DNA from: a virus
Taxonomy: Duplodnaviria > Heunggongvirae > Uroviricota > Caudoviricetes
Length of the DNA stretch: 17,538 nt
IMG/VR virus record: IMGVR_UViG_2690316152_000010
Reading direction: 5' to 3' (one strand)
The notes beneath the pieces were generated by a model, which saw only the letters and a program-made list of their open reading frames with translations, ran no database searches and had not been told where the DNA came from. Each line of letters begins with the position of its first letter. Positions within the stretch are counted from its first letter, which is position 1. The translations under genes and the position numbers were made by a program. This document shows positions 333 to 17,538 of this stretch, piece by piece.

Positions 333-593
333 TTAATTCTGAGGTAAAGGCAAACTCATCTGATTGTTTCCCCTGTGTGAAGCTGGCAGCTCATGCCACG
401 GGATACCTTCTGAAGAGTGAACGCCGGAGGTGTGTTTTGATGTGAATTTATGGAAAGCTTCCAGTGTTGAGAAGCATACGCCGCATTCCAGGTTGTTACA
501 CTGGTAATACTTTTGCCGCACGGTGTTTGAATCATTTTCCGGACGACTGGTGCGGATACGGGCAGATGCGCCACAAAGCGGACAACGGAACAT
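333..593 (-). CDS. ogr: Ogr/Delta-family zinc-finger late-gene transcriptional activator
   Basis: N-terminus MFRCPLCGASARIRTSR...YYQCNNLECGVCF carries the CX2C-X(22-24)-CX4C arrangement and conserved RTSR motif of P2 Ogr / 186 B / P4 Delta. AAGGGAGG Shine-Dalgarno 7 nt upstream of the ATG at 593. Confidence 0.85.
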   Translation of the reverse strand: MFRCPLCGASARIRTSRPENDSNTVRQKYYQCNNLECGVCFSTLEAFHKFTSKHTSGVHSSEGIPWHELPASHRGNNQMSLPLPQN

Positions 594-635
594 AGCGACC
601 TCCCTTAACGTGGTGCTGCTGCTATTCTAAGTTGC

Positions 636-1745
636 TCACTCTGTTTCTGCTATCCATTCCGAGATTTTTGCCTCAAGCTCAAGCTGCGTGGTAAAGCCGC
701 TGTTATCGATGGTGTGCTCGGCTTTTGCAATAATCCAGTCCTGATTATCAATCTCGCTTTTAAATCCTGTTACCGTGCCATGCATTTCGGGGTAGAGTTC
801 TGCACGACCACATGCCAGCGTGATGGAGAATGATGCGGCTCCGCGTTGTAGCTGCTGCCACTTTGCCGCCGCTGCGCGTCTTGCTGCCTGCTCGTTCTGA
901 TAAGTCTTGCGTAACACAAACACATTGCCTTCCGCGCCTTCCATATAATCACCTTCACGGCTGCTGCTTTTCTCCTTTTTGGGTTTTGGCGGTTTGCGGT
1001 GTTTCACGCTGACTTTTTTCTTTTTCCCGTAATTAAGATCAAGCCAGTAAGCGCGTACCCCCGTATACGCTTCGCGGTCAGCAATGCGGAACTGATGGCG
1101 ATCGCCACTGCTGCGCGTGATGGCGAACGATGGCAACGGCTGGCCCTGTGCGTTCACGCCACCGCCTGGCATAATGAATAACAGATTACCGCTTTTTACC
1201 GTGGTGATTGCGCCCAGCATTTCCGCCATGCGCGTAAGGAAGGACATGTCGCTTTCTTCGGTCTGGTCGGCGTGGTCGATTTCGATATCCATCAGCATTT
1301 CGCTGATTTGCGGTTTCAGACCATACCGATGAGCGATGGCGGATACCACACGCTCAACGGTCACATCATGCCAGGACACCTCACGTTTAACGTTAAATTC
1401 ATCCCGAAAATCTGCGCTTCTGGCTGAAACAGTCAGCCTGTCCGGCGGTCCTTCGTGAGCGATTTCATCAACAATGTAAGTGCCTTTTTCTGTCAGCGGT
1501 TCTCCTTTCCAGCCAATGAGAACCGTCAGGCGCGCGCCCCGTGGCGGTAGCTGCAACTGACAATCCGCATCATCCAGCGTGATGGTGAGCTGGTCCGCGT
1601 CAAATCCCCGGTTGTCGGTCAGTGACAGGCTCATCAGGCGCTCTGCCACGCCTGACAGCGTTTTACCCTCCGCGAGAATATCAAAATCCGGCATTTTCAC
1701 GGGGTCTGTGCCCTGACTGAGCAATTGCATGGTGGTATCGGTCAT
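636..1745 (-). CDS. D: Tail protein D (P2 gpD family, 'late control D')
   Basis: 369-aa product starting MTDTTMQLLSQG. Contains the gpD-family blocks LSLTDNRGF.ADQL.I.LDD, RSADFR, SWHD, ESD..FL.R.AE, GDRHQF, REGDYMEGAEGNV, LQRGAASFS and SGFTT.LELE, plus a lysine-rich KKKKVSVKHRKPPKPKKEK linker. Start taken at the ATG at 1745, which has an AGGGAGG Shine-Dalgarno 6 nt upstream, not at the upstream in-frame start of the 413-aa ORF. Confidence 0.85.
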   Translation of the reverse strand: MTDTTMQLLSQGTDPVKMPDFDILAEGKTLSGVAERLMSLSLTDNRGFDADQLTITLDDADCQLQLPPRGARLTVLIGWKGEPLTEKGTYIVDEIAHEGPPDRLTVSARSADFRDEFNVKREVSWHDVTVERVVSAIAHRYGLKPQISEMLMDIEIDHADQTEESDMSFLTRMAEMLGAITTVKSGNLLFIMPGGGVNAQGQPLPSFAITRSSGDRHQFRIADREAYTGVRAYWLDLNYGKKKKVSVKHRKPPKPKKEKSSSREGDYMEGAEGNVFVLRKTYQNEQAARRAAAAKWQQLQRGAASFSITLACGRAELYPEMHGTVTGFKSEIDNQDWIIAKAEHTIDNSGFTTQLELEAKISEWIAETE

Positions 1746-3087: not shown

Positions 3088-3599
3088 TGGCTGTACCAAA
3101 ACATCTTCGCTTTTTTACGCTGTTTGTGGATGGTGAAAACGAAGTGGGTAAGGTGACGTCCGTCACGCCGCCCAAACTGACGCGCAAAACCGACAGCTAT
3201 CGTGGTGGTGGCATGATGGGGGCGGTAAGTATTGATCTCGGTCTGGACGACTCCGCGCTTGATGCGAGTTTTGTTATGGGGGGAGCTGTTCGTGCGCTGT
3301 TCCTTAAATATGGCGGCACGATTGACGGCACGCTGCTGCGTTTTGCGGGTGAATACTACACCGATGCAGAAAGCGATCTGTATGAAATCGAGATGCGCGG
3401 GCGTGTGACGGAAATTGATATGGGGGAGGCCAAACAGGGCGAAGCCACATCACACACTTACGCTGTCAAAAACACCTACTACAAGCTGAGCGTTAACGAT
3501 CGCCCGCTGTTGGAAATCGACCTGTTGAACCACATCTACCGGAAGGACGGCAAGGACATTGTGCCTGACCGCATTCGTTCCGCGCTTGGGCTTGGCTGA
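3087..3599 (+). CDS. FII: Tail tube protein (P2 gpFII family)
   Basis: 170 aa. Start overlaps the sheath stop. Position between sheath and the E/T chaperone and tape-measure genes matches the conserved sheath-tube-chaperone-tape measure order. Confidence 0.9.
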   Translation: MAVPKHLRFFTLFVDGENEVGKVTSVTPPKLTRKTDSYRGGGMMGAVSIDLGLDDSALDASFVMGGAVRALFLKYGGTIDGTLLRFAGEYYTDAESDLYEIEMRGRVTEIDMGEAKQGEATSHTYAVKNTYYKLSVNDRPLLEIDLLNHIYRKDGKDIVPDRIRSALGLG

Positions 3600-3654
3600 T
3601 AAGTAATATGCAGGCGGCGCAGTGCGTCGCCTCTGACTGAAAAGGAGACAACTG

Positions 3655-4029
3655 ATGAAAGATATCGATACTGAAACCCGGAATAACACCGTAGCGGATG
3701 ATGTGACGGCAGGTGAGGATATGGCTGTCGAACGTGGTGTAAAACTTTCCCGGCCAATTGAGCGTGGTGGCGAAAAAATCACATATGTGGAGATCACCGG
3801 GGCTATTGAGCAGGCGGGATCCCTGCGTGGTCTGTCGCTGTCTGATGTGCTGAATCTGAAAGCGGATACCATGTTCACGCTGTTGCCTCGCGTGACCTCG
3901 CCACGACTGGATGAAGTGATGATTAAAAAAATGTCGTCACGCGATTTTATTCGGTTGTGCGCTGTGGCTGTAAATTTTATGAGCGAGCCAGACTCTGGCG
4001 CGAAGAGCGTGCAGGAGACGGCAGCGTAA
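3655..4029 (+). CDS. E: Tail assembly chaperone E (P2 gpE family)
   Basis: Small acidic ORF directly upstream of the tape-measure gene, with an AAGGAG Shine-Dalgarno 8 nt before the ATG. A second frame stays open beyond its stop (see E'). Confidence 0.75.
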   Translation: MKDIDTETRNNTVADDVTAGEDMAVERGVKLSRPIERGGEKITYVEITGAIEQAGSLRGLSLSDVLNLKADTMFTLLPRVTSPRLDEVMIKKMSSRDFIRLCAVAVNFMSEPDSGAKSVQETAA

Positions 4030-4193
4030 TCACCCTGGTGTGCTTTGAGCACATCGAAGATCTGGTGGCGGATATTGCCGCCATTTTTAACTGGTCGCCC
4101 GCCGAAATCTTCATGATGACGCCCGGCGAAGTGGTTAGCTGGCGCGAGCGGGCGGCACTTCGCAGCGGGAATGCAGACAATGAAGACTCTTGA
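3655..4193 (+). CDS. E': Predicted E' (E+E') product made by a programmed -1 frameshift from E
   Basis: The -1 frame relative to E is open from 3927 to the TGA at 4191-4193 and has no credible start of its own. The heptamer A_AAT_TTT at 3972-3978 fits the X_XXY_YYZ slippery pattern in the E frame. The E' end overlaps the T start. Exact shift site is unverified. Confidence 0.45.
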
Positions 4194-6987
4194 TATCCGG
4201 GTCGCTTTCAGCGCCGTTGACAGGCTGACCCGGCCTGCCGAAAACGCCCGCCGCCTGATGGGGCAGTTTGGTGACTCCATCCAGCGAACGCAGGGGGCGA
4301 TCAAAAATCTCGAGCGTCAGGCGCGATCATTTGAGCGCGCCCGCGACGCTGTCAGTAAAGCGGATGCGGGTATCGTGAAAGCACGACGCCAGCTTAACGC
4401 CCTTAATCAGTTACAACGCACGGGTACAGTGCTCAGCGAAAAACAACAAAAGCTGATGCAGCAGTTAAGCACCCGGCTTGAACGCCTGAATGAATCGCGC
4501 ACACGGGAAATTCAGAAAATGCGGGAGCTTGGCGGAGAGCTGAAACGCCACGGCATTTCCCTGACAGGCAGCGATAACACCATCCAGCAGGCCATCAGAC
4601 GCACCGAACAGTACAACAACCAGCTTGAACGCGAACGGCAGGCGCTTGCGCGTGTAACGCGGGCGCGTGAGCGGTATTCGCGCGCGCAGGAAACCGCGGG
4701 AAAACTGAAAACAGGTGGTGCGCTGGCAATTGGTGCGGCAGCGGCGGGCGGCTATGCTGCCGGGCGTTTTTTGCAGCCTGCGATCGGGTTCGGCAAAGAG
4801 ATGTCCCGCGTTCAGGCACTGACGCGAATCGACAAAAACAGCCCGCAGTTTAAGGCGCTGCGTGAGCAGGCGTTAAAACTTGGCTCTGAAACACAGTTTA
4901 CTGCGAGTGATGCCGCCAGTGGGCAGAGCTTTCTGGCAATGGCTGGTTTTACTCCGCAGGCCATTCAGGCCGCATTGCCCGGTGTTCTTAATATGGCGCT
5001 GGCAGGTGGCGTCGAACTCGGCGAGACGGCGGATATAGGCTCCAATATCCTCACACAGTTCAACCTGACAGCCGATCAAATGGACCGGGTTGGCGATACG
5101 CTGACAGCGGCATTCACCCGGACCAATACTGATTTACGCGCGCTGGGCGAAACCATGAAGTATACCGGTCCGGTTGCCGCAAAACTTGGTATCAGTCTTG
5201 AAGAAGCGGCGGCCATGGCCGGGATGCTTGCCAATAATGGTCTTCGTGGAAGCGATGCTGGTACGGCCATGCGCGCAAGTCTGTCCCGCCTTGCATCACC
5301 GCCAAAAGCTGCGGCTGATGCGCTGAAAGAGCTGGGGGTGTCAGTTGCTGACGCCAGAGGCAAAATGCGCCCGATGGAGGATGTGCTGCTTGATCTCTAT
5401 AAGGCGACACAAAAATACGGACAGGTGGACCAGGTTTCCTTCTTCAAGGACATCGCCGGAGAAGAGGCGTTCGTTGGTTTGCAGACGCTTGTTGCTGCGG
5501 CTGGTTCAGGAGAGCTGCAAAAACTGACCAGAGAATTGCAGGGGGCAAGGGGAGAGGCCGATCGCGTCGCAAAAGTAATGGCCGATAATCTTGATGGGGA
5601 CCTGAAAAATCTCGACAGCGCATGGGAAGGTCTTCGTATTCGCATCAGTGATCTGGTTGACGGTCCGCTGCGTTCTGTCACGCAGTGGCTCACGCGGGTG
5701 CTTGAAAAAATCACCTCGCTGGCGCAGGCCCATCCGGTACTGACGCGCCAGCTACTGATAGCAGGCGGTGCGTTGCTGGCAATGACTGCAACGGTTGGCT
5801 CGTTGTCGCTGGCTATTGGTGTGCTTGCTGGCCCGCTGGCAAAACTGCGTCTTGGCTTTTCCCTCCTGACCGGTTCAATGAATGCTGTCAGACTCCTGCC
5901 AGCACTATGGGGAATGGTGACGGGTTCCGTTTCGTTACTGGGGGGCGCTATCGGGGCGTTGTTCAGTCCGGTCGGTCTTATCGTGGCTGCGCTTGCCGGA
6001 GCTGCCGTTCTCATCTGGAAATACTGGGATCCCATCAGGGCATTTTTTGCCGGGGTGTTCAGCGGGATTATGGAAAGGCTGACCCCGTTGCGCGAAACCT
6101 TTGAACGGTTTGGTCCTGTTTTTGACGCAATCGGAAGCGGGATCAGCCAGGTGTTTAACTGGTTTAAATCGCTGTTGTCACCGATGGAGTCCAGCAAGGA
6201 AACGCTGGATAAATGTACCAGTGCTGGCGAGATATTCGGTAACGTTCTTGGCGGTGCGTTACAACTTGTTCTGACACCTGCAAAAATGCTACTGGATACG
6301 CTGGCGTGGATACTTGAAAAACTTGGCGTCCTTCCGGATGAAGCGGAAAGGGCGCGCAAGAAAATCGAAGACGCACAGCGTGCGGCCATTCTTCAGGACA
6401 AGGTTGCCTTACTTCAGGGGGACCTGGCGAAAATCAATCCGCCGAAGCCTGTGGAAAATGGCAATGGCACCGGAGGTGATAAACCCAAAGACAACAAACC
6501 GCTCACAGACAGCAATACCGGGACGCTGCGCAGACTCAGCAAAATTGCTGATAACACAGGTAAGCTGGTTGATGAGACGAAAAAACGCATTGGCCCCGGC
6601 GATATTGTCTTTAAGAACCTGCCCCGCGCACTTGCTGTTCGTGGGGAGTGGCAGGAGCGGAAGATTGCGCAGGTCAGTAAGCCTGCCCCCGCAATTAATA
6701 TCACACCCGTGGTTCCGGCTCCGCTGCCTCCGGCGCTGGTCCCTGTTGTTGCGGCCAGCTCCCGCCCGGTGGCGGAGGCCATACGATCGCCAGTGGCATC
6801 AGCTCCTGCAACTTCCCGTAACCGGGAGCCTGTTGCCTCCGGATTTGGCGGTGAAATTCATGTTCATCTGCATAACATTGTTACACAGAATCCCCGCGAA
6901 CTGGCGAAACTGGTCGGTGAAATGGTTAGGGCAGAAATGGAACGGCGCGCCCGTGCCGGGCGTGGCAGTTTTTACGATAAAGATTGA
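4171..6987 (+). CDS. T: Tail tape-measure protein (P2 gpT family)
   Basis: 938 aa. N-terminal charged, coiled-coil-like region (many R/E/Q/L runs), central glycine/alanine-rich hydrophobic segments, Pro/Ala/Val-rich C-terminal region. Located after E/E'. The true start may be the second ATG at 4180, which has GGGAA 8 nt upstream. Confidence 0.9.
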   Translation: MQTMKTLDIRVAFSAVDRLTRPAENARRLMGQFGDSIQRTQGAIKNLERQARSFERARDAVSKADAGIVKARRQLNALNQLQRTGTVLSEKQQKLMQQLSTRLERLNESRTREIQKMRELGGELKRHGISLTGSDNTIQQAIRRTEQYNNQLERERQALARVTRARERYSRAQETAGKLKTGGALAIGAAAAGGYAAGRFLQPAIGFGKEMSRVQALTRIDKNSPQFKALREQALKLGSETQFTASDAASGQSFLAMAGFTPQAIQAALPGVLNMALAGGVELGETADIGSNILTQFNLTADQMDRVGDTLTAAFTRTNTDLRALGETMKYTGPVAAKLGISLEEAAAMAGMLANNGLRGSDAGTAMRASLSRLASPPKAAADALKELGVSVADARGKMRPMEDVLLDLYKATQKYGQVDQVSFFKDIAGEEAFVGLQTLVAAAGSGELQKLTRELQGARGEADRVAKVMADNLDGDLKNLDSAWEGLRIRISDLVDGPLRSVTQWLTRVLEKITSLAQAHPVLTRQLLIAGGALLAMTATVGSLSLAIGVLAGPLAKLRLGFSLLTGSMNAVRLLPALWGMVTGSVSLLGGAIGALFSPVGLIVAALAGAAVLIWKYWDPIRAFFAGVFSGIMERLTPLRETFERFGPVFDAIGSGISQVFNWFKSLLSPMESSKETLDKCTSAGEIFGNVLGGALQLVLTPAKMLLDTLAWILEKLGVLPDEAERARKKIEDAQRAAILQDKVALLQGDLAKINPPKPVENGNGTGGDKPKDNKPLTDSNTGTLRRLSKIADNTGKLVDETKKRIGPGDIVFKNLPRALAVRGEWQERKIAQVSKPAPAINITPVVPAPLPPALVPVVAASSRPVAEAIRSPVASAPATSRNREPVASGFGGEIHVHLHNIVTQNPRELAKLVGEMVRAEMERRARAGRGSFYDKD

Positions 6988-6993
6988 GGAGTC

Positions 6994-7488
6994 ATGGCCA
7001 TGATGATGATCTACGGCATGTTTGTTTTTGAGCTGCGCACGCTGCCGCATCAGCAGTTACAGCAAAACAAAAGCTGGCGGCATGTGAAAAATGAACGCGT
7101 TAACCGTTCAGCAGGCTGGCAGTATATCGGCGCAGGTGATGATCGCATTGTGCTTTCCGGCGTGCTTTATCCTGAAATTACAGGTGGCGAAGTGTCGCTT
7201 TCGTTGCTGACCACGCAGGCATATACAGGACGCCCCTGGCCTCTGATTGATGGTGTCGGGCAGATTTACGGCATGTATGTACTGACTGAAACGAATACGA
7301 CCCGTTCCGAGTTTGATCGCTATGGTAAGGCGAAAAAGATAGAATTTTCACTGACTCTTGAACGCTGTGATGAGGATTTGCGGGAGCGCCTGCAATCCTC
7401 ATCGTTCAGCGATATGCTGTCCGGCTTCAAAGATAAAGTGACATCATCTCTTAACAGCGCGGCCAGCTCCGTTAAAGGGCTGTTTTGA
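6994..7488 (+). CDS. U: Tail protein U (P2 gpU family)
   Basis: 164 aa beginning MAMMMIYGMFVFELRTLPHQ. Immediately downstream of T, with a GAGGAG Shine-Dalgarno. Size and position match gpU. Confidence 0.8.
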   Translation: MAMMMIYGMFVFELRTLPHQQLQQNKSWRHVKNERVNRSAGWQYIGAGDDRIVLSGVLYPEITGGEVSLSLLTTQAYTGRPWPLIDGVGQIYGMYVLTETNTTRSEFDRYGKAKKIEFSLTLERCDEDLRERLQSSSFSDMLSGFKDKVTSSLNSAASSVKGLF

Positions 7489-7495
7489 TTAACGC

Positions 7496-7525
7496 AAAAC
7501 CGCTAATGGTCAGATTAGCGGTTTT
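7496..7525. terminator. Bidirectional rho-independent terminator hairpin between U and the invertase
   Basis: Perfect 12-bp inverted repeat AAAACCGCTAAT / ATTAGCGGTTTT (7496-7507 and 7514-7525) with a 6-nt loop. A/T runs on both sides give a U-tract in either orientation. Sits 8 nt after the U stop and overlaps the invertase stop codon. Confidence 0.5.
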
Positions 7526-8114
7526 CATTTTCCTGAGTCTGTCTGGTTGTTTCTTCAGCCTGTATATCGCCTACAGGGTGATAACGATAAATCGTCGATA
7601 TGCCGATGTCGTAAATGATCGCCAGTTGTTTCCTGTCATGACCGTTTTTAATCAGCCTCGCTATTTGCTCGTGTTGTTCTTTTGTCAACTTCGGGCGACG
7701 TCCGCCAATGCGTCCTTGTGCGCGTGCTGCTGCCAGCCCGGCCAGTGTACGCTCTACAATTAATTCACGTTCCATTTCGGCTAAAGCCCCCATGACGTGA
7801 AAAAAGAAACGCCCCATGGGTGTTGACGTGTCAATGCTGTCCGTCAGACTACGGAAATTAACACCTTTTTCCCGCAATTCCTCAATAAGCGTGATCAGGT
7901 GTTTCATACTTCTGCCCAGTCTGTCCAGCTTCCAGACAACCAGCGTATCTCCTTCTGATAGCGTTCTGAGCAGTTTTTTCAATCCCGGTCTGGTTGATTT
8001 CGTTCCGCTGATTTTATCTTCAAAAATCAGTTCACATCCTGCGCAGTTCAGTGCATTGCGTTGTAAATCCGTGTTCTGGTCGTTTGTTGACACACGAATA
8101 TAGCCAATTTGCAT
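7515..8114 (-). CDS. Site-specific DNA invertase, serine recombinase of the Hin/Gin/Cin/Pin family
   Basis: Product starts MQIGYIRVSTNDQNTDLQRNAL and contains VVWKLDRLGRSMKHL, SLTDSIDTSTPMGRFFFHVMGALAEMERELI.ERT.AGLAAARA.GR.GGR.PKLT and a C-terminal helix-turn-helix region, all hallmark blocks of this family including the catalytic serine. AAAGAGGA Shine-Dalgarno upstream of the ATG at 8114. The track's 242-aa ORF is an upstream extension. Confidence 0.9.
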   Translation of the reverse strand: MQIGYIRVSTNDQNTDLQRNALNCAGCELIFEDKISGTKSTRPGLKKLLRTLSEGDTLVVWKLDRLGRSMKHLITLIEELREKGVNFRSLTDSIDTSTPMGRFFFHVMGALAEMERELIVERTLAGLAAARAQGRIGGRRPKLTKEQHEQIARLIKNGHDRKQLAIIYDIGISTIYRYHPVGDIQAEETTRQTQENENR

Positions 8115-8168
8115 AAAAAACATCCTCTTTGTTTCGTGAAAAATACAGAGTTGGTATAGGTAGGGATA

Positions 8169-8194
8169 AAAACGAAAACGTTGGTTTGGGGGAA
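8169..8194 (+). promoter_or_regulatory. Candidate invertase crossover site s1 at the 5' edge of cassette A
   Basis: AAAACGAAAACG-TT-GGTTTGGGGGAA. The right half and about 60 bp downstream are shared by every cassette junction. The AAACN-NN-GGTTT core resembles gix/hix/cix-type sites. The 26-bp boundaries are inferred, not demonstrated. Confidence 0.4.
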
Positions 8195-8647
8195 GGCTCT
8201 GCATTGCCTGTTGGTGTACCGGTTCCGTGGCCCACCGCCACACCGCCAGAAGGCTGGTTAAAGTGCGACGGGCGCGCCTTTACAAAAGAACAATATCCTG
8301 TTCTGGCCAGAGCCTACCCGACCCTCCGTCTTCCCGATTTACGCGGTGAATTTATTCGTGGCTGGGATGACGGACGTGGTGTGGATGCCGGGCGACAATT
8401 ATTATCTTCACAGGGGGATGCAATAAGAAATATTGAGGGATTCGCAGATGGCGGGATCGGTATGTCTTTTGATGCAATCAGAGGGGCTTTTTACGATGCA
8501 GGAACACGATCAGCGAGAATGCCGAATAACACAACTACTATAGACAAAACCGATGACCTTGGATTCGACGCCTCTCGTGTCGTGCCAACAGCTAATGAAA
8601 ACCGTCCTCGTAATATTGCCTTTAATTATATCGTAAGGGCGGCATAA
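8183..8647 (+). CDS. Promoterless tail-fibre C-terminal cassette A (alternative receptor-binding domain, tail-collar type)
   Basis: Open frame with no ATG start, beginning at the shared junction (GLGEGSALPVGVPVPWPTATPPEGWLKCDGRAFTKEQYPVLARAYPTL...LPDLRGEFIRGWDDGR) and ending ...RPRNIAFNYIVRAA*. Same N-terminal block and same end motif as the C-terminus of H. Confidence 0.75.
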   Translation, partial: GLGEGSALPVGVPVPWPTATPPEGWLKCDGRAFTKEQYPVLARAYPTLRLPDLRGEFIRGWDDGRGVDAGRQLLSSQGDAIRNIEGFADGGIGMSFDAIRGAFYDAGTRSARMPNNTTTIDKTDDLGFDASRVVPTANENRPRNIAFNYIVRAA

Positions 8648-8666
8648 AAACGTTGGTTTGGGGGAA
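8641..8666 (+). promoter_or_regulatory. Candidate invertase crossover site s2 at the 5' edge of cassette B
   Basis: GGCATAAAAACG-TT-GGTTTGGGGGAA, same core and downstream conserved block as s1 and s3. It overlaps the cassette A stop codon. Confidence 0.4.
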
Positions 8667-9131
8667 GGCTCTGCATTGCCTGTTGGTGTACCGGTTCCAT
8701 GGCCCACCGCCACACCGCCAGCAGGCTGGTTACAGTGCAACGGAGCTACGTTCACCAAAGAACAATATCCTGTTCTGGCCAGAGTCTACCCGACCCTCAG
8801 TCTTCCCGATTTACGCGGTGAGTTTATCCGTGGATGGGACGACGGGCGCAAGATTGACGAGGGGCGTAAGTTGCTTTCATGGCAGAAAGGTACACTGGTC
8901 GGCGGTCATGACGATAACGATTCTGCGCTTGATATCTCGTACATGAGTAACGGAAATAATATTGACTATGGCGGCGATAAGGTGTTTGCGGGGAATTACC
9001 GTAGCGATTATTTGTGGTACGCAATACTGGGTGGAACAAACAGTCGCGCAAAAGCCGAATTAAACGGAGCATTCTTTAACATAACCCGCCCCCGCAATAT
9101 CGCGTTTAACTATATCGTGAGGGCGGCGTGA
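8655..9131 (+). CDS. Promoterless tail-fibre C-terminal cassette B (alternative receptor-binding domain, tail-collar type)
   Basis: Starts with the shared junction block (GEGSALPVGVPVPWPTATPPAGWLQCNGATFTKEQYPVLARVYPTLSLPDLRGEFIRGWDDGRKIDEGRKLL), then a distinct distal domain, then ...RPRNIAFNYIVRAA*. No ATG start; the 'M' in the ORF track is a TTG. Confidence 0.75.
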   Translation, partial: GLGEGSALPVGVPVPWPTATPPAGWLQCNGATFTKEQYPVLARVYPTLSLPDLRGEFIRGWDDGRKIDEGRKLLSWQKGTLVGGHDDNDSALDISYMSNGNNIDYGGDKVFAGNYRSDYLWYAILGGTNSRAKAELNGAFFNITRPRNIAFNYIVRAA

Positions 9132-9137
9132 TACCGT

Positions 9138-9285
9138 TCAACTGGCAAGTGCCAGTGGCGCTTCCGGCCAGCTGATTTCAGGTGCCGTGCTGATATCCAG
9201 TGCGTTCAGCTCGTCGATATAATCCAGCACGGCGTTCAGTTTTGCCGTTTCTTCTGGTGTCAGACTGCGACCAGCACGCAGTTAA
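9138..9285 (-). pseudogene. 3' remnant of a tail-fibre assembly (tfa) gene: last ~48 codons only
   Basis: Exact reverse complement of the 3' end of the intact tfa (16430-16577). On its own strand the frame is closed by an in-frame TAA exactly where the homology ends, with no start codon. Confidence 0.7.
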
Positions 9286-9347
9286 CGCCGGGTGGGGCTG
9301 CCTGCAGATATAACGATATTATTCCGGCCGACCACTGCCTGCATGAT

Positions 9348-10826
9348 GTGCAGGATATGAGTACGCTGAATCATCCGAAGGCAGACCTGAGCAAAGGGCA
9401 GTACGGCTGTGTCGGCCAGGGCTTACATATTGCCAAAAAACTGCTCCCGTATATCCCGAATAACGCGGGGATCCTGCTGGTACCATGCTGTCGTGGTGGT
9501 TCGGCATTCACTCAGGGCGCGGAGGGAACATTCAGTACGACCACGGGGGCCAGCCAGGATTCGGCGCGCTGGGGTGTGGGTAAACCGTTATATCAGGACC
9601 TGATTGCGCGCACTAAAGCTGCATTACAGAAGAACCCGAAAAATGTGTTGCTGGCGGTGTGCTGGATGCAGGGCGAATTTGACATGAGCGCTGCCACCTA
9701 CGCACAGCAACCGGACCTGTTCACGGCCATGCTGAAGCAGTTCCGTACTGACCTTTCCGGATTTAACGCGCAGTGCCATGGCGGCAGTGCTGCAGTTGTA
9801 CCGTGGATTTGTGGCGACACGACGTATTACTGGAAAAACACATACGGCACACAGTATGACTCCGTCTACGGCGCGTACAAAAACAGGGAGAGCGACAACG
9901 TTTTCTTTGTGCCGTTCATGACCGACGGTAACGGCAACAACACGCCCACCAACTTACCGGCAGAAGACCCGGATATTGCTGATGCAGGTTATTACGGCGC
10001 GCAATCCCGTAGTAATGGTAATTGGGTATCGTCAAATCGTCCGACACATTTCAGTTCATGGGCGCGCAGGGGCATTATTTCGGATCGCCTGGCAACCGCT
10101 ATTCTGAACGCAGTTGGTCGAACCAGCGCCTTCATCAGCGGTACCGCACCGGAGATTAAACCCTCGCCCGGCGGCGACACTCCATCGGGGCCGTCTGATG
10201 GTGACACATCCGTTCGTACAGTCTCCCTGCTGCCGACAGCCGGAGAGGCTGCTGCGCAGGGCTGGACCATCACCGGCGGCAGTGTTGCGCTGGAAGATGG
10301 TGTGTTTAAGGTTACCAAGCAGAGCAATAAAACCTGGTCCCTGATGCATCCGGTGGATGACGCAGTCTCCCTGCTGACACGGGGTGGCAGACTGAGCTGT
10401 AAGTTTCGACTGTCAGGCGCACTGACCAACAACCAGTTCGGTCTGGGAATTTATCTGTATACCGATGTAGCGTTACCTGACGTCGTGGCGATGACCGGGA
10501 CTGGTAACCCGTTCCTGATGTCGTTCTTCACCCAGACCACAGACGGCAAACTGAATCTGATGCATCACAAGAAAGCCGGAAACACAAAGTTGGGCGAGTT
10601 CGGGAATTACAGTAACGACTGGCAGACGCTGGAGCTGGTGTTCACCGCCGGCAGTGCCACGGTTACTCCGAAACTGAATGGAGTGGCTGGCCCGGCATTC
10701 CAGGTCATAAAAGACAGTCTGACACTGGGGCTGAATGCGCTGACGTTAACTGATATCACTAAAAATGCCGCGTACGGCGTCGATATCGGCAGCCTGGTGC
10801 TGGAAATCAATAATCCCGCAGCATAA
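9348..10826 (+). CDS. Sialate O-acetylesterase-like protein (NanS/YjhS family, SASA/SGNH-hydrolase type); apparently 5'-truncated
   Basis: Contains NDIIP..HC.HDVQDM, GQ.LHIAKKLLPYIPNNAGILLVPCCRGGSAFT, CWMQGEFDM, CGDTTYYWK, AEDPD and FSSWARRGIISDR blocks that I recall from prophage and chromosomal 9-O-acetyl-sialate esterases. The reading frame is open upstream back to the repeat boundary at 9285 but has no ATG there. The expected N-terminal GQSN catalytic block is absent. Confidence 0.65.
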   Translation: MQDMSTLNHPKADLSKGQYGCVGQGLHIAKKLLPYIPNNAGILLVPCCRGGSAFTQGAEGTFSTTTGASQDSARWGVGKPLYQDLIARTKAALQKNPKNVLLAVCWMQGEFDMSAATYAQQPDLFTAMLKQFRTDLSGFNAQCHGGSAAVVPWICGDTTYYWKNTYGTQYDSVYGAYKNRESDNVFFVPFMTDGNGNNTPTNLPAEDPDIADAGYYGAQSRSNGNWVSSNRPTHFSSWARRGIISDRLATAILNAVGRTSAFISGTAPEIKPSPGGDTPSGPSDGDTSVRTVSLLPTAGEAAAQGWTITGGSVALEDGVFKVTKQSNKTWSLMHPVDDAVSLLTRGGRLSCKFRLSGALTNNQFGLGIYLYTDVALPDVVAMTGTGNPFLMSFFTQTTDGKLNLMHHKKAGNTKLGEFGNYSNDWQTLELVFTAGSATVTPKLNGVAGPAFQVIKDSLTLGLNALTLTDITKNAAYGVDIGSLVLEINNPAA

Positions 10827-10849
10827 GGAAGAGCAGGAGAGCAAAACAG

Positions 10850-11317
10850 ATGCTTAAGACAAACAGTCTGCGAGAGTCCATGCTTCATGGGTGTCGGTGG
10901 TGCCAGGCTAATCCCGAGAAATTCACCATTTTCGTGGAGAGCGGCAACATTGAAACGACCGGAGAAGCGCCCTCGTTTGTTTACCGCTATCAGATGGTGA
11001 TGTTTGTCATGGATTACGCCGGAGAGCTGGACGACCTCACGCTGCCGCTGCTGGCGTGGTTATCCGAAAATCAGCCACAGTTGTTGCTCAATCCGGAGCG
11101 TAATCAGGACATCAAATTTTCTGCCGTTATCAATGACGATGACAGCGCCGATCTCCTGTTTACGCTCCCCCTGCGGGAACGCGTTCGCATCACGCGCAAC
11201 AGTCAGGGCACACCGCAGGCAGAACACCTGCCGGAGCCAAAACCCCGTCTGCCCTCTTCCGAAGGCGACTGGTCGCATGTATTCCAGGATGTGACGTGGG
11301 GTGAAAGCGATGGATAA
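10850..11317 (+). CDS. R: Tail completion protein R (P2 gpR family)
   Basis: 155 aa, starting MLKTNSLRESM, with ...PLLAWLSENQP... in the middle, matching gpR in size and pattern. AGGAG Shine-Dalgarno upstream. Directly precedes the S/V/W/J/I/H block. Confidence 0.75.
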   Translation: MLKTNSLRESMLHGCRWCQANPEKFTIFVESGNIETTGEAPSFVYRYQMVMFVMDYAGELDDLTLPLLAWLSENQPQLLLNPERNQDIKFSAVINDDDSADLLFTLPLRERVRITRNSQGTPQAEHLPEPKPRLPSSEGDWSHVFQDVTWGESDG

Positions 11318-11945
11318 GGCATTCACCAGCGTGGATGAAACCTTTGAGGCTATCCGCGACAGCCTGAATCAGCAGGCCATCAATAACATCGCCAGAAAGC
11401 TGGCACAGGATTTACGTCGCGCCCAGCAGGCACGTATCCGATCACAAAAAGCGCCGGACGGGACCGAATGGACACCACGCAGACGCCGCGTAACCCGGAT
11501 ACAGGAGCGCATTCGCTTTATCTGGAATAACGAAGCACGCACGCTGAAAAACTGGCATCACGACACGGGGAAATACGGGCGAACCATTACCGGGTGGGAT
11601 GAGGATAAAAACAATATCCGCACGTTTTACCGGGATGACATCGACCGTTTTCTGGAAATACGCACCCGGCGCATCAACCAGGACAGCACAAAGCGCGTCC
11701 CCATGTTCGTAAAACTGCGCACCGCCCGCTACCTGAAAGCCCGTGCAGATGCCTCCGGTGTGACGGTGGGTTACAGCGGCGTGGCCGCACGTATTGCACG
11801 CGTTCATCAGTTCGGTGAGCGCGATCAGGTTGCGCCGGGCATTTTCACCGATTACCCGGTACGTGAGCTGTTGGGTATCAGCCAGGCAGATGAGCGCCTG
11901 ATTTATAACACGGTGCTGGGCCGGATTGCGGAGGCTGTACGGTGA
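11310..11945 (+). CDS. S: Virion morphogenesis / tail completion protein S (P2 gpS family)
   Basis: Position between R and V. Contains QKAPDGT.W.PRR and VHQFG motifs that I associate with gpS-type proteins. Overlaps the R stop. The alternative GTG start at 11301 is possible. Confidence 0.65.
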   Translation: MDKAFTSVDETFEAIRDSLNQQAINNIARKLAQDLRRAQQARIRSQKAPDGTEWTPRRRRVTRIQERIRFIWNNEARTLKNWHHDTGKYGRTITGWDEDKNNIRTFYRDDIDRFLEIRTRRINQDSTKRVPMFVKLRTARYLKARADASGVTVGYSGVAARIARVHQFGERDQVAPGIFTDYPVRELLGISQADERLIYNTVLGRIAEAVR

Positions 11946-12523
11946 GCGCAGAACTCATGCGACTGCTGAGCAACATCATCCGCACCGGGATCATCTCTGA
12001 AGTTGATGAGAAGTCCTGGCGCGTGCGCGTTCGCAGCGGCGAACTGGAAACAGGCTGGTTGCGCTGGAACACCACGCGCGCGGGAGCCTTCAATGTGTGG
12101 CTGCCGCCATCACCAGGCGAACAGGTGGTAATTGCCTGCATTGGCGGCAACCCGGAAACCGCCATGATAATTGGCAGCCTGTGGAGTGATGCCAGTCCGG
12201 CCCCCGGCAAAAGCCTGAAAGAAATCGTGGTCAGCGCGCCGGATGGCGCGGTGTTCCGCTACGACGCAGACGCTGGCGCACTGAGCGCCAGCGGCATGAA
12301 AACAGCCACCCTGCAGGCATCCGTCAGCGTGACACTGGATACGCCCGTCGTGGAATGCACAAACCTTCTGAGAACAGCGACGCTTGACGTCACAAAAGGG
12401 GGAAAGATGAGCGGCAATATCACGCACAGCGGCGGCAACTTCACCTCAAACGGCATCACAGTGCATACGCATAAACACGGTGGTGTGAAAGGCGGCAGCG
12501 ATTCGACAGGAGGCCCGCAGTGA
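11942..12523 (+). CDS. V: Baseplate spike/assembly protein V (P2 gpV family)
   Basis: N-terminal IRTGIISEVD...GWLRW..TRAG....W.PP.PGEQVV and C-terminal TLDTPVVECTN...KGGKMSGNITHSGGNFTSNGITVHTHKH are characteristic gpV blocks. GTG start overlaps the S stop, with GGAGG upstream. Confidence 0.9.
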   Translation: MSAELMRLLSNIIRTGIISEVDEKSWRVRVRSGELETGWLRWNTTRAGAFNVWLPPSPGEQVVIACIGGNPETAMIIGSLWSDASPAPGKSLKEIVVSAPDGAVFRYDADAGALSASGMKTATLQASVSVTLDTPVVECTNLLRTATLDVTKGGKMSGNITHSGGNFTSNGITVHTHKHGGVKGGSDSTGGPQ

Positions 12524-12870
12524 CAACCCGCTACACAGGAATGAATCCGGACGGGACGGGAAACCTGAATGATATGGAGCACCTGAAACAGTCAGCCAGG
12601 GACATCCTGACCACCCCGCTGGCCAGCCGGGTTATGCGACGGGAATATGGCAGCCTTGTACCTGATTTGATTGACGAACCCATGAATAACACCACGCGTC
12701 TGCAATGCATGAGTGCTGCCGTGATTGCGCTGACACGATGGGAACCCCGCATTGCCCTGGACGCCATCGACGTTGTCTGGAAAGCGGGAGGCCGCGCCGG
12801 GGTGACGCTGTCGGGCACTGTCATGCAGACCATGCAGAATGTTGAGTTAACCATCACGCTGAGGGAGTAA
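12520..12870 (+). CDS. W: Baseplate wedge protein W (P2 gpW / T4 gp25-like lysozyme fold family)
   Basis: MTTRYTGMN...DLEHL.QS..DIL.TP..SRVMRR.YGS start and 116-aa size match gpW. GTG start overlaps the V stop, with AGGAGG 7 nt upstream. Confidence 0.9.
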   Translation: MTTRYTGMNPDGTGNLNDMEHLKQSARDILTTPLASRVMRREYGSLVPDLIDEPMNNTTRLQCMSAAVIALTRWEPRIALDAIDVVWKAGGRAGVTLSGTVMQTMQNVELTITLRE

Positions 12871-12873
12871 ATC

Positions 12874-13770
12874 ATGCCTGCTGTTGACCTTTCCCAGTTA
12901 CCGGAACCCGCCATCATCGCGAAGCCTGATTTTGAGGCAATTCTGGCTGACACAAAGGCCATGATGATTGCGTCCTATCCTGCCGAACAGCGTGAAGCCG
13001 TCTCCGCCGCGCTGGAGCTGGAATCGGAACCCCTGAACGTTATCGCCCAGACAACAGCGTTTCGTGAAATGCTGTTACGCCAGCGGGTCAATGAGGGTGC
13101 ACGCGCCTGCATGTTAAGCCACAGCGCCGGGACAGACCTGGACAACCTCGCGGGCAATATGAACACAAAGCGCCTGGTTATCACTCCGGCAACGGATACC
13201 ACCGACGCGGTGATGGAAAGCGACACATCGCTGAGACTGCGGGCGCAACGGGCGTATGACGGTCTGAGTGTTGCTGGCCCGTCAGGCGCATACGAGTATT
13301 TTGCACGCAGCGCCAGCGGTCTGGTACGCGACGCGCGAGCCATCAGCCCGTCTCCGGCCAACGTGACGGTTTCCATCCTGTCCACTGAAGGCGACGGCAC
13401 AGCAACGGAGGCGTTGCTTAATACCGTTCGCGCCGTTCTGAATGCAGAGGATACCCGCCCGGTGGCCGACCGCCTGACCGTACAGAGCGCCAGAATCGTG
13501 ACATGGCGGCTGAATGCAAAACTGTACTTTTACCCCGGCCCGGAATCCGAACCTATTCTGGCCGCGGCTGAATCGTCGTTCAGGAAGTGGCTGGCTGAGC
13601 AGGGGCTTATCGGTCAGGACGTGGCGTTGTCCGCCATTGCTGCCGCACTGCATGTGCACGGTGTGCAACGCGTGGAGATAATCGAACCCACACAGAATAT
13701 GGCCATCAGCGACATACAGGCGGCGCGCTGTGAGTCATTCACCATCAGCGAAGGTGGACGCAATGAGTAA
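12874..13770 (+). CDS. J: Baseplate protein J (P2 gpJ family)
   Basis: 298 aa, in the position and of the size expected for gpJ between W and I. GAGGGAG Shine-Dalgarno upstream. Confidence 0.85.
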   Translation: MPAVDLSQLPEPAIIAKPDFEAILADTKAMMIASYPAEQREAVSAALELESEPLNVIAQTTAFREMLLRQRVNEGARACMLSHSAGTDLDNLAGNMNTKRLVITPATDTTDAVMESDTSLRLRAQRAYDGLSVAGPSGAYEYFARSASGLVRDARAISPSPANVTVSILSTEGDGTATEALLNTVRAVLNAEDTRPVADRLTVQSARIVTWRLNAKLYFYPGPESEPILAAAESSFRKWLAEQGLIGQDVALSAIAAALHVHGVQRVEIIEPTQNMAISDIQAARCESFTISEGGRNE

Positions 13771-14371
13771 TTCGTTGTTACCACCATCAGCCAGCAATTT
13801 CATGCGTTGTGCCGAAGCCGTCGGAACACGCATTACAGACATTCCGGTAGACCTCAACACGCTGTGGTCGCCGGACACCTGCCCGGTGCATCTGCTGCCT
13901 TATCTCGCCTGGGCGTTTTCCGTTGACCGCTGGGATCGCAACTGGCCGGAAGAGACAAAGCGACAGGTGATTCGTGATGCATGGCTGATACACCGACACA
14001 AAGGGACCATCAGCGCACTGCGAAGAGCCGTGGAGCCTCTCGGCTACCTGATTGAAGTAAAGGAGTGGTGGCAACTCAACGAGGAGCCGGGAACATTTCG
14101 CATTGTTGTCGGAGTACTTGATCAGGGCATCACCGATGAAATGTATCAGGAACTTGAGCGCCTTATTGCGGATGCAAAACCAGTAAGTCGCCATCTGACG
14201 GGGCTGGCGATCAGCCTGAGTGTGAACGGAAAGATTTTCGTTGGTACGGGATGCTATCACGGCGATGCCCTGACGGTTTATCCCTACACCCCGGAGTCCA
14301 TTATTGTCGAAGGGGATTATTTCCCTGCCCCGGCCATTCATTTAATTGATAATCTGAGAGTAAACGCATGA
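13763..14371 (+). CDS. I: Baseplate/tail protein I (P2 gpI family)
   Basis: MSNSLLPPSAS... with LW.PDTCP..LLPYLAWAFSVDRWD..WPEETKR.VIRDA, GTFR..VGVL..GITDEMYQELERLIADAKP.SRHL. Start taken at the ATG at 13763 (AAGGTGGA Shine-Dalgarno), overlapping the J stop, rather than the longer track ORF from 13730. Confidence 0.85.
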   Translation: MSNSLLPPSASNFMRCAEAVGTRITDIPVDLNTLWSPDTCPVHLLPYLAWAFSVDRWDRNWPEETKRQVIRDAWLIHRHKGTISALRRAVEPLGYLIEVKEWWQLNEEPGTFRIVVGVLDQGITDEMYQELERLIADAKPVSRHLTGLAISLSVNGKIFVGTGCYHGDALTVYPYTPESIIVEGDYFPAPAIHLIDNLRVNA

Positions 14372-15963
14372 CAGTGAAATACTACGCCATTCTGACTAAT
14401 CAGGGCGCGGCACGACTGGCTAACGCGACGATGCTCGGCAGTAAGCTGAATCTGACGCGAATGGCCGTTGGTGATGCAAATGGTGTGTTACCAACACCAG
14501 ACCCTGCACAAACAAAACTGATTAACCAGAAACGCATTGCACCGCTGAATCTTCTGAGTGTTGACCCTAACAATCAGAGCCAGATTATTGCGGAGCAAAT
14601 CATCCCTGAAAGCGAGGGTGGATTCTGGATCCGTGAGATTGGTCTTTATGATGATAAAGGTGTACTCATTGCGGTGGCAAACTGCCCGGAAACGTACAAA
14701 CCGCAGTTGCAGGAAGGCAGTGGACGCACCCAGACTATCCGCATGATTCTGGTTGTCACGAACACCGAAGCCATCACGCTGAAAATCGACCCGTCTGTGG
14801 TTCTGGCAACCCGCAAATATGTGGATGATAAAATCTCAAAGCACGAGCAGTCACGACGTCACCCGGACGCCTCGCTGACCGCAAAAGGCTTTGTTCAACT
14901 TAGCAGTGCCACGGACAGTCAATCAGAAACTGAGGCTGCCACGCCGAAGGCTGTGAAAATCGCGTATGATCTGGCCTGGGGAAAATACACAGCCCAGGAT
15001 GCAACAACGACCCGTAAAGGGATCGTACAACTGAGCAGTGCCACCAACAGCACCTCTGAAACGCTGGCCGCCACACCAAAAGCCGTCAAGGCGGCATACG
15101 ACCTTGCAGCCGGCAAGGCCCCCGTCAGCCACACTCACCCATGGAGTCAGATAACGGGAGTGCCTGCTGCCTCGCTGACGGCAAAAGGCACCGTACAACT
15201 GAGCAGTGCCATCAACAGCACGTCTGAAATACTGGCCGCCACACCGAAAGCGGTCAAGGATGCATACGATCTGGCAAACGGAAAACAACCGGCAGATGCC
15301 ACGCTCACTGCTCTGGCAGGACTTGCCACTGCAGCAGATCGGTTGCCTTATTTTACCGGAGCAGACCGCGCAGCGCTGGCAACCCTTACAGCTATTGGTC
15401 GCGCTATTATCGCTAAGGGCAGTATAAAAGATGTCCTCAATTACCTTGGTTTGGGGGAAGGCTCTGCATTGCCTGTTGGTGTACCGGTTCCGTGGCCCAC
15501 CGCCACACCGCCAGAAGGCTGGTTAAAGTGCGACGGGCGCGCCTTTACAAAAGAACAATATCCTGTTCTGGCCAGAGCCTACCCGACCCTCAGTCTTCCC
15601 GATTTACGCGGTGAGTTTATCCGTGGATGGGACGACGGGCGCAAAGTTGATACAGGACGTAAGTTGCTGTCCGCACAAGGGGCAACGCTGTTAAGAACAG
15701 CAATGCTGGATTATTATAACCAGGACACTACGGGAACCTCGGGGATAGTCGGCATGGGATTCAACAATGAAGATTCCATTACAGACCTTCGTGAGGGCAG
15801 CTTTAAAATGCCGGACGGGACAACATTCAGCGATCCTGTCGTGGCAATGTCAGACAATGGTATGCAGGCTACTATTCTGACCTCTATCAGAAGCGGGTAT
15901 GCGAAGGGTATCACTGTCAGACCCCGTAGCATTGCACTTAATTACATTGTGAGGGCAGTTTAA
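14368..15963 (+). CDS. H: Tail fibre protein H (P2 gpH family): constant N-terminal shaft (to ~15447) fused to the currently expressed variable C-terminal domain
   Basis: Strong gpH blocks: GGFWIREIGLYDD.G.LIAVAN, HEQSRRHPDASLTAKGFVQLSSAT, repeated SETLAATPKAVKAAYDLA units, KQP.DATLTALAGLATAADR.PYFTG. From the shared junction (LNYLGLGEGSALPVGVPVPWP...) onward it carries a third variant of the tail-collar C-terminal domain, ending ...RPRSIALNYIVRAV*. Confidence 0.9.
   Translation: MTVKYYAILTNQGAARLANATMLGSKLNLTRMAVGDANGVLPTPDPAQTKLINQKRIAPLNLLSVDPNNQSQIIAEQIIPESEGGFWIREIGLYDDKGVLIAVANCPETYKPQLQEGSGRTQTIRMILVVTNTEAITLKIDPSVVLATRKYVDDKISKHEQSRRHPDASLTAKGFVQLSSATDSQSETEAATPKAVKIAYDLAWGKYTAQDATTTRKGIVQLSSATNSTSETLAATPKAVKAAYDLAAGKAPVSHTHPWSQITGVPAASLTAKGTVQLSSAINSTSEILAATPKAVKDAYDLANGKQPADATLTALAGLATAADRLPYFTGADRAALATLTAIGRAIIAKGSIKDVLNYLGLGEGSALPVGVPVPWPTATPPEGWLKCDGRAFTKEQYPVLARAYPTLSLPDLRGEFIRGWDDGRKVDTGRKLLSAQGATLLRTAMLDYYNQDTTGTSGIVGMGFNNEDSITDLREGSFKMPDGTTFSDPVVAMSDNGMQATILTSIRSGYAKGITVRPRSIALNYIVRAV
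14869..15276 (+). repeat. Three in-frame tandem repeat units inside H
   Basis: Units at about 14869-14976, 15013-15108 and 15169-15276 encode near-identical (A)SLTAKG.VQLSSAT.S.SE.LAATPKAVK.AYDLA segments. The strong nucleotide similarity also produces the shadow ORFs on the opposite strand at 14919-15288. Confidence 0.8.
15434..15459 (+). promoter_or_regulatory. Candidate invertase crossover site s3 at the constant/variable junction of H
   Basis: TCCTCAATTACC-TT-GGTTTGGGGGAA. The left half is H-constant sequence; the right half and the following ~60 bp are identical to the cassette junctions at s1 and s2. Confidence 0.45.
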
Positions 15964-16577
15964 TGAGTAACACTGCAGTTCTGGATGAAAACGGTATCGC
16001 CACTGTAGCGGGCGATATCACTGTATATCACTATGACGAGGAAACCCGGGAATACACCTCATCCTCTGTGGAGTATCTCGCCCTTGGGGTGGGTACTCCG
16101 GCACATTCGTGCGCCGATGCACCGCCGGAGGCAATTTCGGGTTACGTGGTTTGCCGGACTGCCACGCTGAACGGGTGGGAGCATGTGCCTGATCACCGCG
16201 GCGAGACGGTATACAGCACGGAGAACGGTAACCCTGTTCTGATTACCCAACCGGGTGATTACCCGGCGGACACCACCACAAAACAGCCAGCCACGCCATG
16301 GGATACCTGGAACGGTGAGGCGTGGGTAACCGATACTGAACGGCAGCGAGCCGCAGAACTGGAGGTTGCCAGACAGCAACGCCAGCAACGGGTGAAACAG
16401 GCGATGGCGTCCGTCGATCTTATCAACCTCAAACTGCGTGCTGGTCGCAGTCTGACACCAGAAGAAACGGCAAAACTGAACGCCGTGCTGGATTATATCG
16501 ACGAGCTGAACGCACTGGATATCAGCACGGCACCTGAAATCAGCTGGCCGGAAGCGCCACTGGCACTTGCCAGTTGA
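15963..16577 (+). CDS. Tail fibre assembly chaperone (Tfa / P2 gpG / Mu U-like)
   Basis: 204 aa, directly after H with a TAATG stop/start overlap. C-terminal ...LTPEE.AKLNAVLDYIDELNALDISTAPEISWPE.P is typical of Tfa-family chaperones. Confidence 0.8.
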   Translation: MSNTAVLDENGIATVAGDITVYHYDEETREYTSSSVEYLALGVGTPAHSCADAPPEAISGYVVCRTATLNGWEHVPDHRGETVYSTENGNPVLITQPGDYPADTTTKQPATPWDTWNGEAWVTDTERQRAAELEVARQQRQQRVKQAMASVDLINLKLRAGRSLTPEETAKLNAVLDYIDELNALDISTAPEISWPEAPLALAS

Positions 16578-16583
16578 ACGGTA

Positions 16584-17060
16584 TCACGCCGCCCTCACGA
16601 TATAGTTAAACGCGATATTGCGGGGGCGGGTTATGTTAAAGAATGCTCCGTTTAATTCGGCTTTTGCGCGACTGTTTGTTCCACCCAGTATTGCGTACCA
16701 CAAATAATCGCTACGGTAATTCCCCGCAAACACCTTATCGCCGCCATAGTCAATATTATTTCCGTTACTCATGTACGAGATATCAAGCGCAGAATCGTTA
16801 TCGTCATGACCGCCGACCAGTGTACCTTTCTGCCATGAAAGCAACTTACGCCCCTCGTCAATCTTGCGCCCGTCGTCCCATCCACGGATAAACTCACCGC
16901 GTAAATCGGGAAGACTGAGGGTCGGGTAGACTCTGGCCAGAACAGGATATTGTTCTTTGGTGAACGTAGCTCCGTTGCACTGTAACCAGCCTGCTGGCGG
17001 TGTGGCGGTGGGCCATGGAACCGGTACACCAACAGGCAATGCAGAGCCTTCCCCCAAACC
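16584..17060 (-). CDS. Inverted copy of tail-fibre cassette B (promoterless variable C-terminal domain)
   Basis: Encoded 157-aa sequence is identical to 8658-9131. Converges on the tfa stop, 6 nt away. Confidence 0.75.
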   Translation of the reverse strand, partial: GLGEGSALPVGVPVPWPTATPPAGWLQCNGATFTKEQYPVLARVYPTLSLPDLRGEFIRGWDDGRKIDEGRKLLSWQKGTLVGGHDDNDSALDISYMSNGNNIDYGGDKVFAGNYRSDYLWYAILGGTNSRAKAELNGAFFNITRPRNIAFNYIVRAA

Positions 17061-17074
17061 AACGTTTTTATGCC
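17049..17074 (-). promoter_or_regulatory. Candidate invertase crossover site s4 (inverted copy of s2)
   Basis: Mirror image of 8641-8666 within the inverted repeat. Confidence 0.4.
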
Positions 17075-17532
17075 GCCCTTACGATATAATTAAAGGCAAT
17101 ATTACGAGGACGGTTTTCATTAGCTGTTGGCACGACACGAGAGGCGTCGAATCCAAGGTCATCGGTTTTGTCTATAGTAGTTGTGTTATTCGGCATTCTC
17201 GCTGATCGTGTTCCTGCATCGTAAAAAGCCCCTCTGATTGCATCAAAAGACATACCGATCCCGCCATCTGCGAATCCCTCAATATTTCTTATTGCATCCC
17301 CCTGTGAAGATAATAATTGTCGCCCGGCATCCACACCACGTCCGTCATCCCAGCCACGAATAAATTCACCGCGTAAATCGGGAAGACGGAGGGTCGGGTA
17401 GGCTCTGGCCAGAACAGGATATTGTTCTTTTGTAAAGGCGCGCCCGTCGCACTTTAACCAGCCTTCTGGCGGTGTGGCGGTGGGCCACGGAACCGGTACA
17501 CCAACAGGCAATGCAGAGCCTTCCCCCAAACC
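17068..17532 (-). CDS. Inverted copy of tail-fibre cassette A (promoterless variable C-terminal domain)
   Basis: Encoded sequence is identical to cassette A (8183-8647). Confidence 0.75.
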   Translation of the reverse strand, partial: GLGEGSALPVGVPVPWPTATPPEGWLKCDGRAFTKEQYPVLARAYPTLRLPDLRGEFIRGWDDGRGVDAGRQLLSSQGDAIRNIEGFADGGIGMSFDAIRGAFYDAGTRSARMPNNTTTIDKTDDLGFDASRVVPTANENRPRNIAFNYIVRAA

Positions 17533-17538
17533 AACGTT
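17521..17538 (-). promoter_or_regulatory. Candidate invertase crossover site s5 (inverted copy of s1), truncated by the window end
   Basis: Mirror image of 8177-8194. The outer half-site lies beyond the window. Confidence 0.3.

Follow-up and report, generated by a model that had tools for sequence, protein, structure and literature searches.

Based on its sequence matches, the open reading frame (ORF) at 9348..10826 on the plus strand of the window (the whole stretch of 17,538 nt of viral DNA analysed here) is the 3' 82% of nanS-p, a prophage-borne SGNH/SASA hydrolase gene, from a P2-like prophage of Escherichia coli. The nanS-p gene itself is most likely intact, and we attribute with high confidence both its truncation and its adjacency to tail-fibre cassettes to mis-oriented pieces joined across an unclosed gap, the right piece (9285 to the end) being inverted. 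As judged from other E. coli genomes, the true gene would most likely be an intact nanS-p of 626 aa (DUF1737-SASA-DUF6645) that closes the lysis cassette, with lysC before it and gpR behind it. In short, nanS-p is here an already known family member in a context common among E. coli prophages, and the anomaly is an artefact.

The ORF as called mechanically has 492 aa, starting with GTG at 9348 and ending with the stop codon at 10826. Its reading frame is open back to 9132, and only two start codons, GTG 9348 and ATG 9357 (the latter being the start chosen by the gene caller), are found before 9576; the nanS-p part present in the window occupies 9285..10826 (plus strand) and comprises codons 114-626 plus the stop. 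Pfam recognised SASA (PF03629, E = 3.6e-11), matched at profile positions 57-157 of 226 only, and DUF6645 (PF20350, E = 1.6e-19), the lectin-like jelly-roll C-terminal domain of NanS-p, at 10374..10706 (plus strand). Among PDB structures, residues 1-254 of the ORF matched chain residues 83-332 of NanS/YjhS (3PT5, E = 2.3e-89), and residues 297-489 matched the C-terminal domain of NanS-p (6YP6, E = 2.6e-30). Both parts that characterise NanS-p, namely a SASA/SGNH catalytic domain homologous to NanS (PF03629, 3PT5) and a C-terminal lectin-like jelly roll (PF20350, 6YP6), are present in the ORF, and a resemblance far beyond chance marks it, at the level of sequence, as a homologue of the NanS/NanS-p sialate O-acetylesterases with a lectin-like C-terminal domain. 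These four matches bear out the original prediction of a NanS-like esterase, and the domain search that it had proposed (SASA/DUF303, SGNH) yielded SASA together with DUF6645.

The alternative that the ORF encodes a tail-fibre or tail-spike receptor-binding protein, and not an esterase, is suggested by the tail genes nearby and by the lectin-like jelly-roll fold of the C-terminal domain, which is shared with many receptor-binding domains. However, the esterase alignment to 3PT5 (E = 2.3e-89) extends over residues 1-254 of the ORF with blocks II, III and V conserved, the full-length homologues of the ORF carry GQSNA, and Pfam gave the ORF no match to any tail-fibre family. On these grounds the receptor-binding reading was rejected as having next to no chance of being correct. 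An assignment to an unrelated tail-fibre or tail-spike family lacking the esterase fold, which had been named beforehand as the outcome that would overturn the esterase call, was looked for and not found.

According to a survey of SGNH hydrolases, the conserved blocks of NanS are 17-GQSNA-21, 120-RGGSAF-125, 178-MQGEFD-183 and SHFS-303, and every catalytic block could be placed from the 3PT5 alignment. The alignment, the survey and a motif search together located three retained blocks on the plus strand: block II (RGGSAF, with the oxyanion-hole Gly) at 9492..9509, block III (MQGEFD) at 9666..9683, and block V (THFS, with the catalytic His equivalent to His301 of NanS) at 10044..10055. GQSN, the core of block I, was found in no frame of the window. 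In full-length homologues GQSNA occupies residues 80-84 and the window fragment begins at residue 114; the place of block I, with the nucleophile Ser (Ser19 in NanS), is before the break and not after it. Because block I is missing, the ORF as written in the window would be catalytically inactive. So, for the ORF as written, the expectation that its product is probably inactive unless a catalytic serine lies downstream proved right. Block I is missing at a point where the source record has an N, and its absence thus reflects the assembly, not necessarily the gene.

The window represents the last 17.5 kb of contig CYBG01000002.1 (353,633 nt) of GCA_001285145.1, and the 489-aa product read from ATG 9357 is on record in this contig only. 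The sole difference between window and record is at position 9284 (L004 position 9928), an unclosed scaffold gap that is 'N' in CYBG01000002.1 and 'A' in the window. An ambiguity code was turned into an ordinary base during preparation of the window, and the scaffold gap was thereby hidden from readers of the raw sequence. Homology to nanS-p starts at 9285, directly after the N, at codon 114. Because the deposited record has N there, the junction 9283/9285 was never sequenced, and because the truncation coincides with the N, it represents an assembly gap and is not biological. The original prediction of a truncated gene is therefore correct in one respect, since the 5' end is indeed missing from the ORF as written (SASA is matched from profile position 57, 3PT5 from residue 83 and the 626-aa homologues from residue 114), but the truncation sits at the N of the deposited contig and does not describe a biological event. 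A 121-nt probe across the junction reached a coverage of at least 80% in none of 5,426 complete E. coli genomes.

The sequence to the left of the gap is present twice in the same scaffold. The left arm of a perfect inverted duplication occupies 8175..9283 (plus strand). Collar cassette 1 falls within it for the most part and cassette 2 in full, as do the 146 nt at the 3' end of the tail-fibre assembly gene G (9138..9283 on the minus strand). The right arm (16432..17538, minus strand) runs to the contig end, 2 nt past the window. Within the window the inverted repeat (8177-9283 versus 16432-17538) measures 1,107 nt, is 100% complementary and touches the window end; against the full contig it is a perfect repeat of 1,109 nt reaching the last base, so that the contig end, and not sequence divergence, limits it. 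As given, the window matches the complete genome DA33135 as two opposite-strand blocks overlapping by 1.1 kb. When it is unfolded (1-9283 followed by the reverse complement of 9285-16431), however, one block of 16,405 nt results, with 98.7% identity to DA33135, and the region becomes collinear with the prophages of DA33135, strain 300444 and O104:H4. The part at 7400-9283, comprising the end of U, the minus-strand serine recombinase, the two collar cassettes and the 3' 146 nt of G, is contiguous in DA33135 at 99.9%. The signs of a mis-join are thus found together: an N exactly at the junction, a flank duplicated in the same scaffold, and collinearity restored by flipping one piece.

To the right of the gap, two alleles of nanS-p follow each other. 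The first 81 nt (9285..9365, plus strand) are of the lambdoid (Stx1-phage) type: they agree with the Stx1 phage allele (L002) throughout and depart from the P2-type allele (L001) in 17 places. From 9366 to the stop codon (10826) the nucleotide identity to the 626-aa P2-type allele of strain 300444 is 100%. Mismatch positions further delimit a 143-nt stretch (9366..9508, plus strand) that is identical in P2-type and lambdoid nanS-p and forms a repeat node for a contig break or paralogue switch. At this length, the common stretch can break short-read assemblies or lead them astray, and prophages could recombine through it. From 9308 on, the window shares 99.5% identity with a gene of 1,881 nt that carries the annotation 'DUF6645 domain-containing protein'; the best matches in complete genomes start at window positions 9308-9311, with mismatches clustered at the 5' end. 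E. coli genomes with nanS-p have a median of 3 matching places. The segment 9285..9365 was most likely added in gap filling, with reads that belong to a paralogue, and an allele switch such as that at 9365/9366 is expected when a contig edge in a multi-copy gene is extended with paralogue reads. A natural hybrid allele, with a lambdoid 5' part and a P2-type 3' part, was found in none of the 5,426 complete genomes.

The serine DNA invertase of tail-fibre switching (Resolvase plus HTH_7) is encoded at 7515..8114 on the minus strand, and crossover-like cores are recognised at 8176-8187 and 8648-8659. The contig end, when reverse-complemented, equals window position 8175, one base before the core AAACGTTGGTTT, and the homology among three alternative C-terminal fibre cassettes begins at this same core. 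By its letters, the core looks like a crossover site of the Gin/Cin/Pin type served by the recombinase of 7515..8114, and the crossover sites of this invertase probably account for both the contig break and the mis-scaffolding. As a whole, the invertible tail-fibre system (7515-9131 and 15437-17538) consists of the serine recombinase and three alternative C-terminal cassettes for H, with a single tail-fibre assembly gene (15963..16577). The three H cassettes have about 240 nt in common (8178-8417, 8650-8889 and 15443-15682), and their crossover-like core is AAACGTTGGTTT in two cassettes and TACCTTGGTTT in H.

These observations can be combined into a possible history of the record. Contigs of short reads would have broken at two repeats, namely the 143-nt stretch that nanS-p paralogues have in common and the crossover site of the invertase with which collar cassette 1 begins. 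A scaffolder would then have joined the pieces with the second one the wrong way round, perhaps because read pairs from inversion isomers of the fibre segment misled it. At the left edge, a gap filler would have extended the sequence by 1.1 kb that truly lies next to it, so that the end of the other piece came to be present twice; at the right edge, it would have added 81 nt from reads of the lambdoid paralogue. The two edges would never have overlapped, leaving a single N. The N, the duplication, the allele switch and the collinearity are seen directly in the sequences; we infer the history of the assembly pipeline from this pattern, and the software is a guess.

If the junction were real, illegitimate recombination or a fold-back event in the P2-like prophage would have turned round the segment between nanS-p and G and produced a second copy of the collar cassettes. 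This would leave a dead, 5'-truncated nanS-p, with gpR and gpS cut off from the late promoter, in a defective prophage. E. coli prophages do rearrange, the frame is open across the join, and the scaffolder did link the two pieces; since such linking needs some read pairs, a rearranged sub-population is conceivable. However, the record has N and no junction base was sequenced, a simple inversion would not keep G intact at 16431/16432 while duplicating 1.1 kb, the 81 nt beside the N belong to a different paralogue, the junction is missing from the 5,426 complete genomes, and the break points match neither invertase sites nor microhomology. At the junction itself, the only microhomology was a shifted 'CAGT', and a clean overlap merge does not fit. 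A real rearrangement, which would need an inverted duplication together with an exchange between paralogues within 81 nt, is without sequence support, and we consider it very improbable.

Particular routes to the junction were also tried and rejected. The question of a chimera arising by inversion, fold-back or amplification was made moot by the N in the record. Inversion by the invertase at a pseudo-site was discarded, as the break points (nucleotide ~470 of G and codon 114 of nanS-p) are unlike the AAACNNNGGTTT-type cores at the 5' ends of the cassettes, and inversions between true crossover sites cannot flip the segment from constant H to nanS-p relative to the recombinase. The false join of two pieces remains by far the preferred explanation.

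Directly downstream of the ORF lie the tail completion gene gpR (10850..11317, plus strand; Pfam PF06891, E = 1.4e-38) and then gpS, and gpR is a genuine neighbour, the same adjacency being found in other prophages. The ORFs upstream in the window (8129..8647 and 8658..9131) are two 'Collar' cassettes according to Pfam. Intact homologues stand between lysC and gpR in strain 300444, DA33135 and O104:H4 FDAARGOS_349. A location between fibre cassettes and baseplate genes, as originally described, was thus created by the false join; the true gene is most likely flanked by lysC on its upstream side and by gpR on its downstream side.

When searched with a 561-nt probe across the nanS-p/gpR boundary (coverage of at least 80%), 375 of the 5,426 complete E. 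coli genomes (~7%), O104:H4 included, were found to carry nanS-p directly upstream of gpR. In deposited phages, by contrast, in none of the 49 matching records (50,697 searched) did a probe across this boundary reach a coverage of at least 80%. The statement that P2-like phages normally have no such gene therefore applies to deposited phage genomes but not to the prophages of complete E. coli genomes. Among species-representative genomes, relatives were found at five loci: two in E. albertii and one each in Escherichia sp., Proteus faecis and a MAG. Among the papers searched, a single one names both nanS-p and 'P2-like', and it uses the latter term for cytolethal-distending-toxin prophages only. 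The P2-like lysC-gpR context of a well-conserved nanS-p allele is little discussed there, and pointing it out is modestly useful. In phage 434 (OL657226), an esterase of the SASA family is annotated within the 'approximate region of 434B nonhomology'.

The P2 late set was identified by Pfam as gpR, S, V, W, J, I, H, G, FI, FII, E, T, U, D and ogr. The prophage end carries a toxin gene of the hok/gef family at about 1-141 on the minus strand (window 1-593 corresponding to L004 645-1237), followed by the gene for the ogr/delta zinc-finger late activator (333..593, minus strand) beside gpD (636..1745, minus strand; 369 aa as called). In canonical P2, all these late blocks run in one direction. 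In the window, however, the FI-FII-E-T-U block (1903-7488) is on the strand opposite to D/ogr (636-1745), as it is in the L003 and L001 prophages, and after unfolding it is opposite to the R-S-V-W-J-I-H-G block (10850-16577) as well. The slot between G and the U-T block contains a serine acetyltransferase gene in strain 300444 (L001 17758-18330) and the invertase with its cassettes in the prophage of the window, and it thus looks like a position of variable cargo.

As described in the literature, the NanS-p proteins of EDL933 and O104:H4 prophages are active esterases for Neu5,9Ac2 that remove O-acetyl groups from the sialoglycans of mucin and make growth on Neu5,9Ac2 possible. According to a review, five NanS-p alleles of O104:H4 give active esterases, and the P2-prophage allele may or may not be among them. 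The C-terminal domain of NanS-p is a lectin-like jelly roll that has been proposed to bind carbohydrate. By analogy, the intact enzyme of the P2-like prophage would deacetylate Neu5,9Ac2 and mucin sialoglycans by means of the Ser nucleophile (in GQSNA) and a His base, which would allow the lysogen to grow on acetylated sialic acid.

A different role is suggested by a preprint of 2026, in which gp84 (NanS-p) of phi24B is described as a processed, capsid-decorating protein anchored on capsid hexons via DUF1737 hexamers. The intact P2-type NanS-p might likewise be mainly a virion component, docking on capsid hexons by DUF1737, rather than an enzyme of lysogenic conversion. The N-terminal DUF1737 of the full-length P2-type protein (PF08410, 30.5 bits), which lies upstream of the gap and outside the window, the DUF1737 hexamers reported for gp84 on the hexons, and the location of nanS-p among late lysis and morphogenesis genes are consistent with such a role. 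However, lambdoid alleles match DUF1737 much more strongly (57.7 bits, against 30.5 for the P2-type protein), P2-type capsids are unlike the T=9 capsid of phi24B, and deposited P2-like phage genomes do not carry nanS-p next to gpR. We therefore regard a mainly virion-associated function as rather unlikely. That the protein would decorate the P2-like capsid structurally, with a diverged DUF1737 docking as in gp84 of the podovirus phi24B, we regard as distinctly unlikely; the window, being without the DUF1737 part, itself bears nothing on this idea. If capsid decoration were true, the virions of a myovirus family would have a surface able to bind mucin and to deacetylate sialoglycans, and the presence of nanS-p inside the late lysis/morphogenesis block in 7% of complete E. 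coli genomes would be explained.

The main value of the present case is one of caution: the report of a 'truncated esterase in tail cluster' would be false, being the product of a draft scaffold with a hidden N. The established biology is that nanS-p alleles let E. coli lysogens use the O-acetylated sialic acids of mucin, and that pathogenic strains carry several copies.

In comparison with chromosomal NanS (YjhS, 3PT5), the ORF has the same SASA/SGNH domain with RGGSAF, MQGEFD and S/T-HFS conserved. However, NanS is a single-domain enzyme without DUF1737 or a lectin domain, and the window ORF has no equivalent of residues 1-82 of the NanS chain, which include GQSNA and Ser19. The closest counterparts are the NanS-p proteins of P2-like prophages, WP_032207317.1 of strain 300444 and WP_000202135.1 of O104:H4 FDAARGOS_349 (RefSeq name 'DUF6645 domain-containing protein'), which differ from each other at two positions. 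The window protein is 99% identical to that of strain 300444 over the shared residues, and its gene has the same downstream neighbours (gpR, gpS, V, W, J, I and H). It differs from them in starting at codon 114 after the N, without DUF1737 and block I, and in residues 118, 121, 122 and 140 (full-length numbering), which are of the lambdoid type.

The NanS-p proteins of lambdoid Stx phages are represented by z1466/L0105 of 933W, vb_24B_21/gp84 of phi24B and the product of a Stx1a phage gene annotated as 'yjhS'. The identity to these lambdoid forms is about 88% in nucleotides and 81% in amino acids. The lambdoid gene is located between stx/Q and the holin gene S, upstream of the lysis genes, whereas the gene of P2-like prophages follows lysC and precedes gpR. 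Nevertheless, the full-length P2-type protein (626 aa) and the Stx-phage NanS-p have their domains in the same order, DUF1737-SASA-DUF6645, and, according to the literature, the enzymology is common to both.
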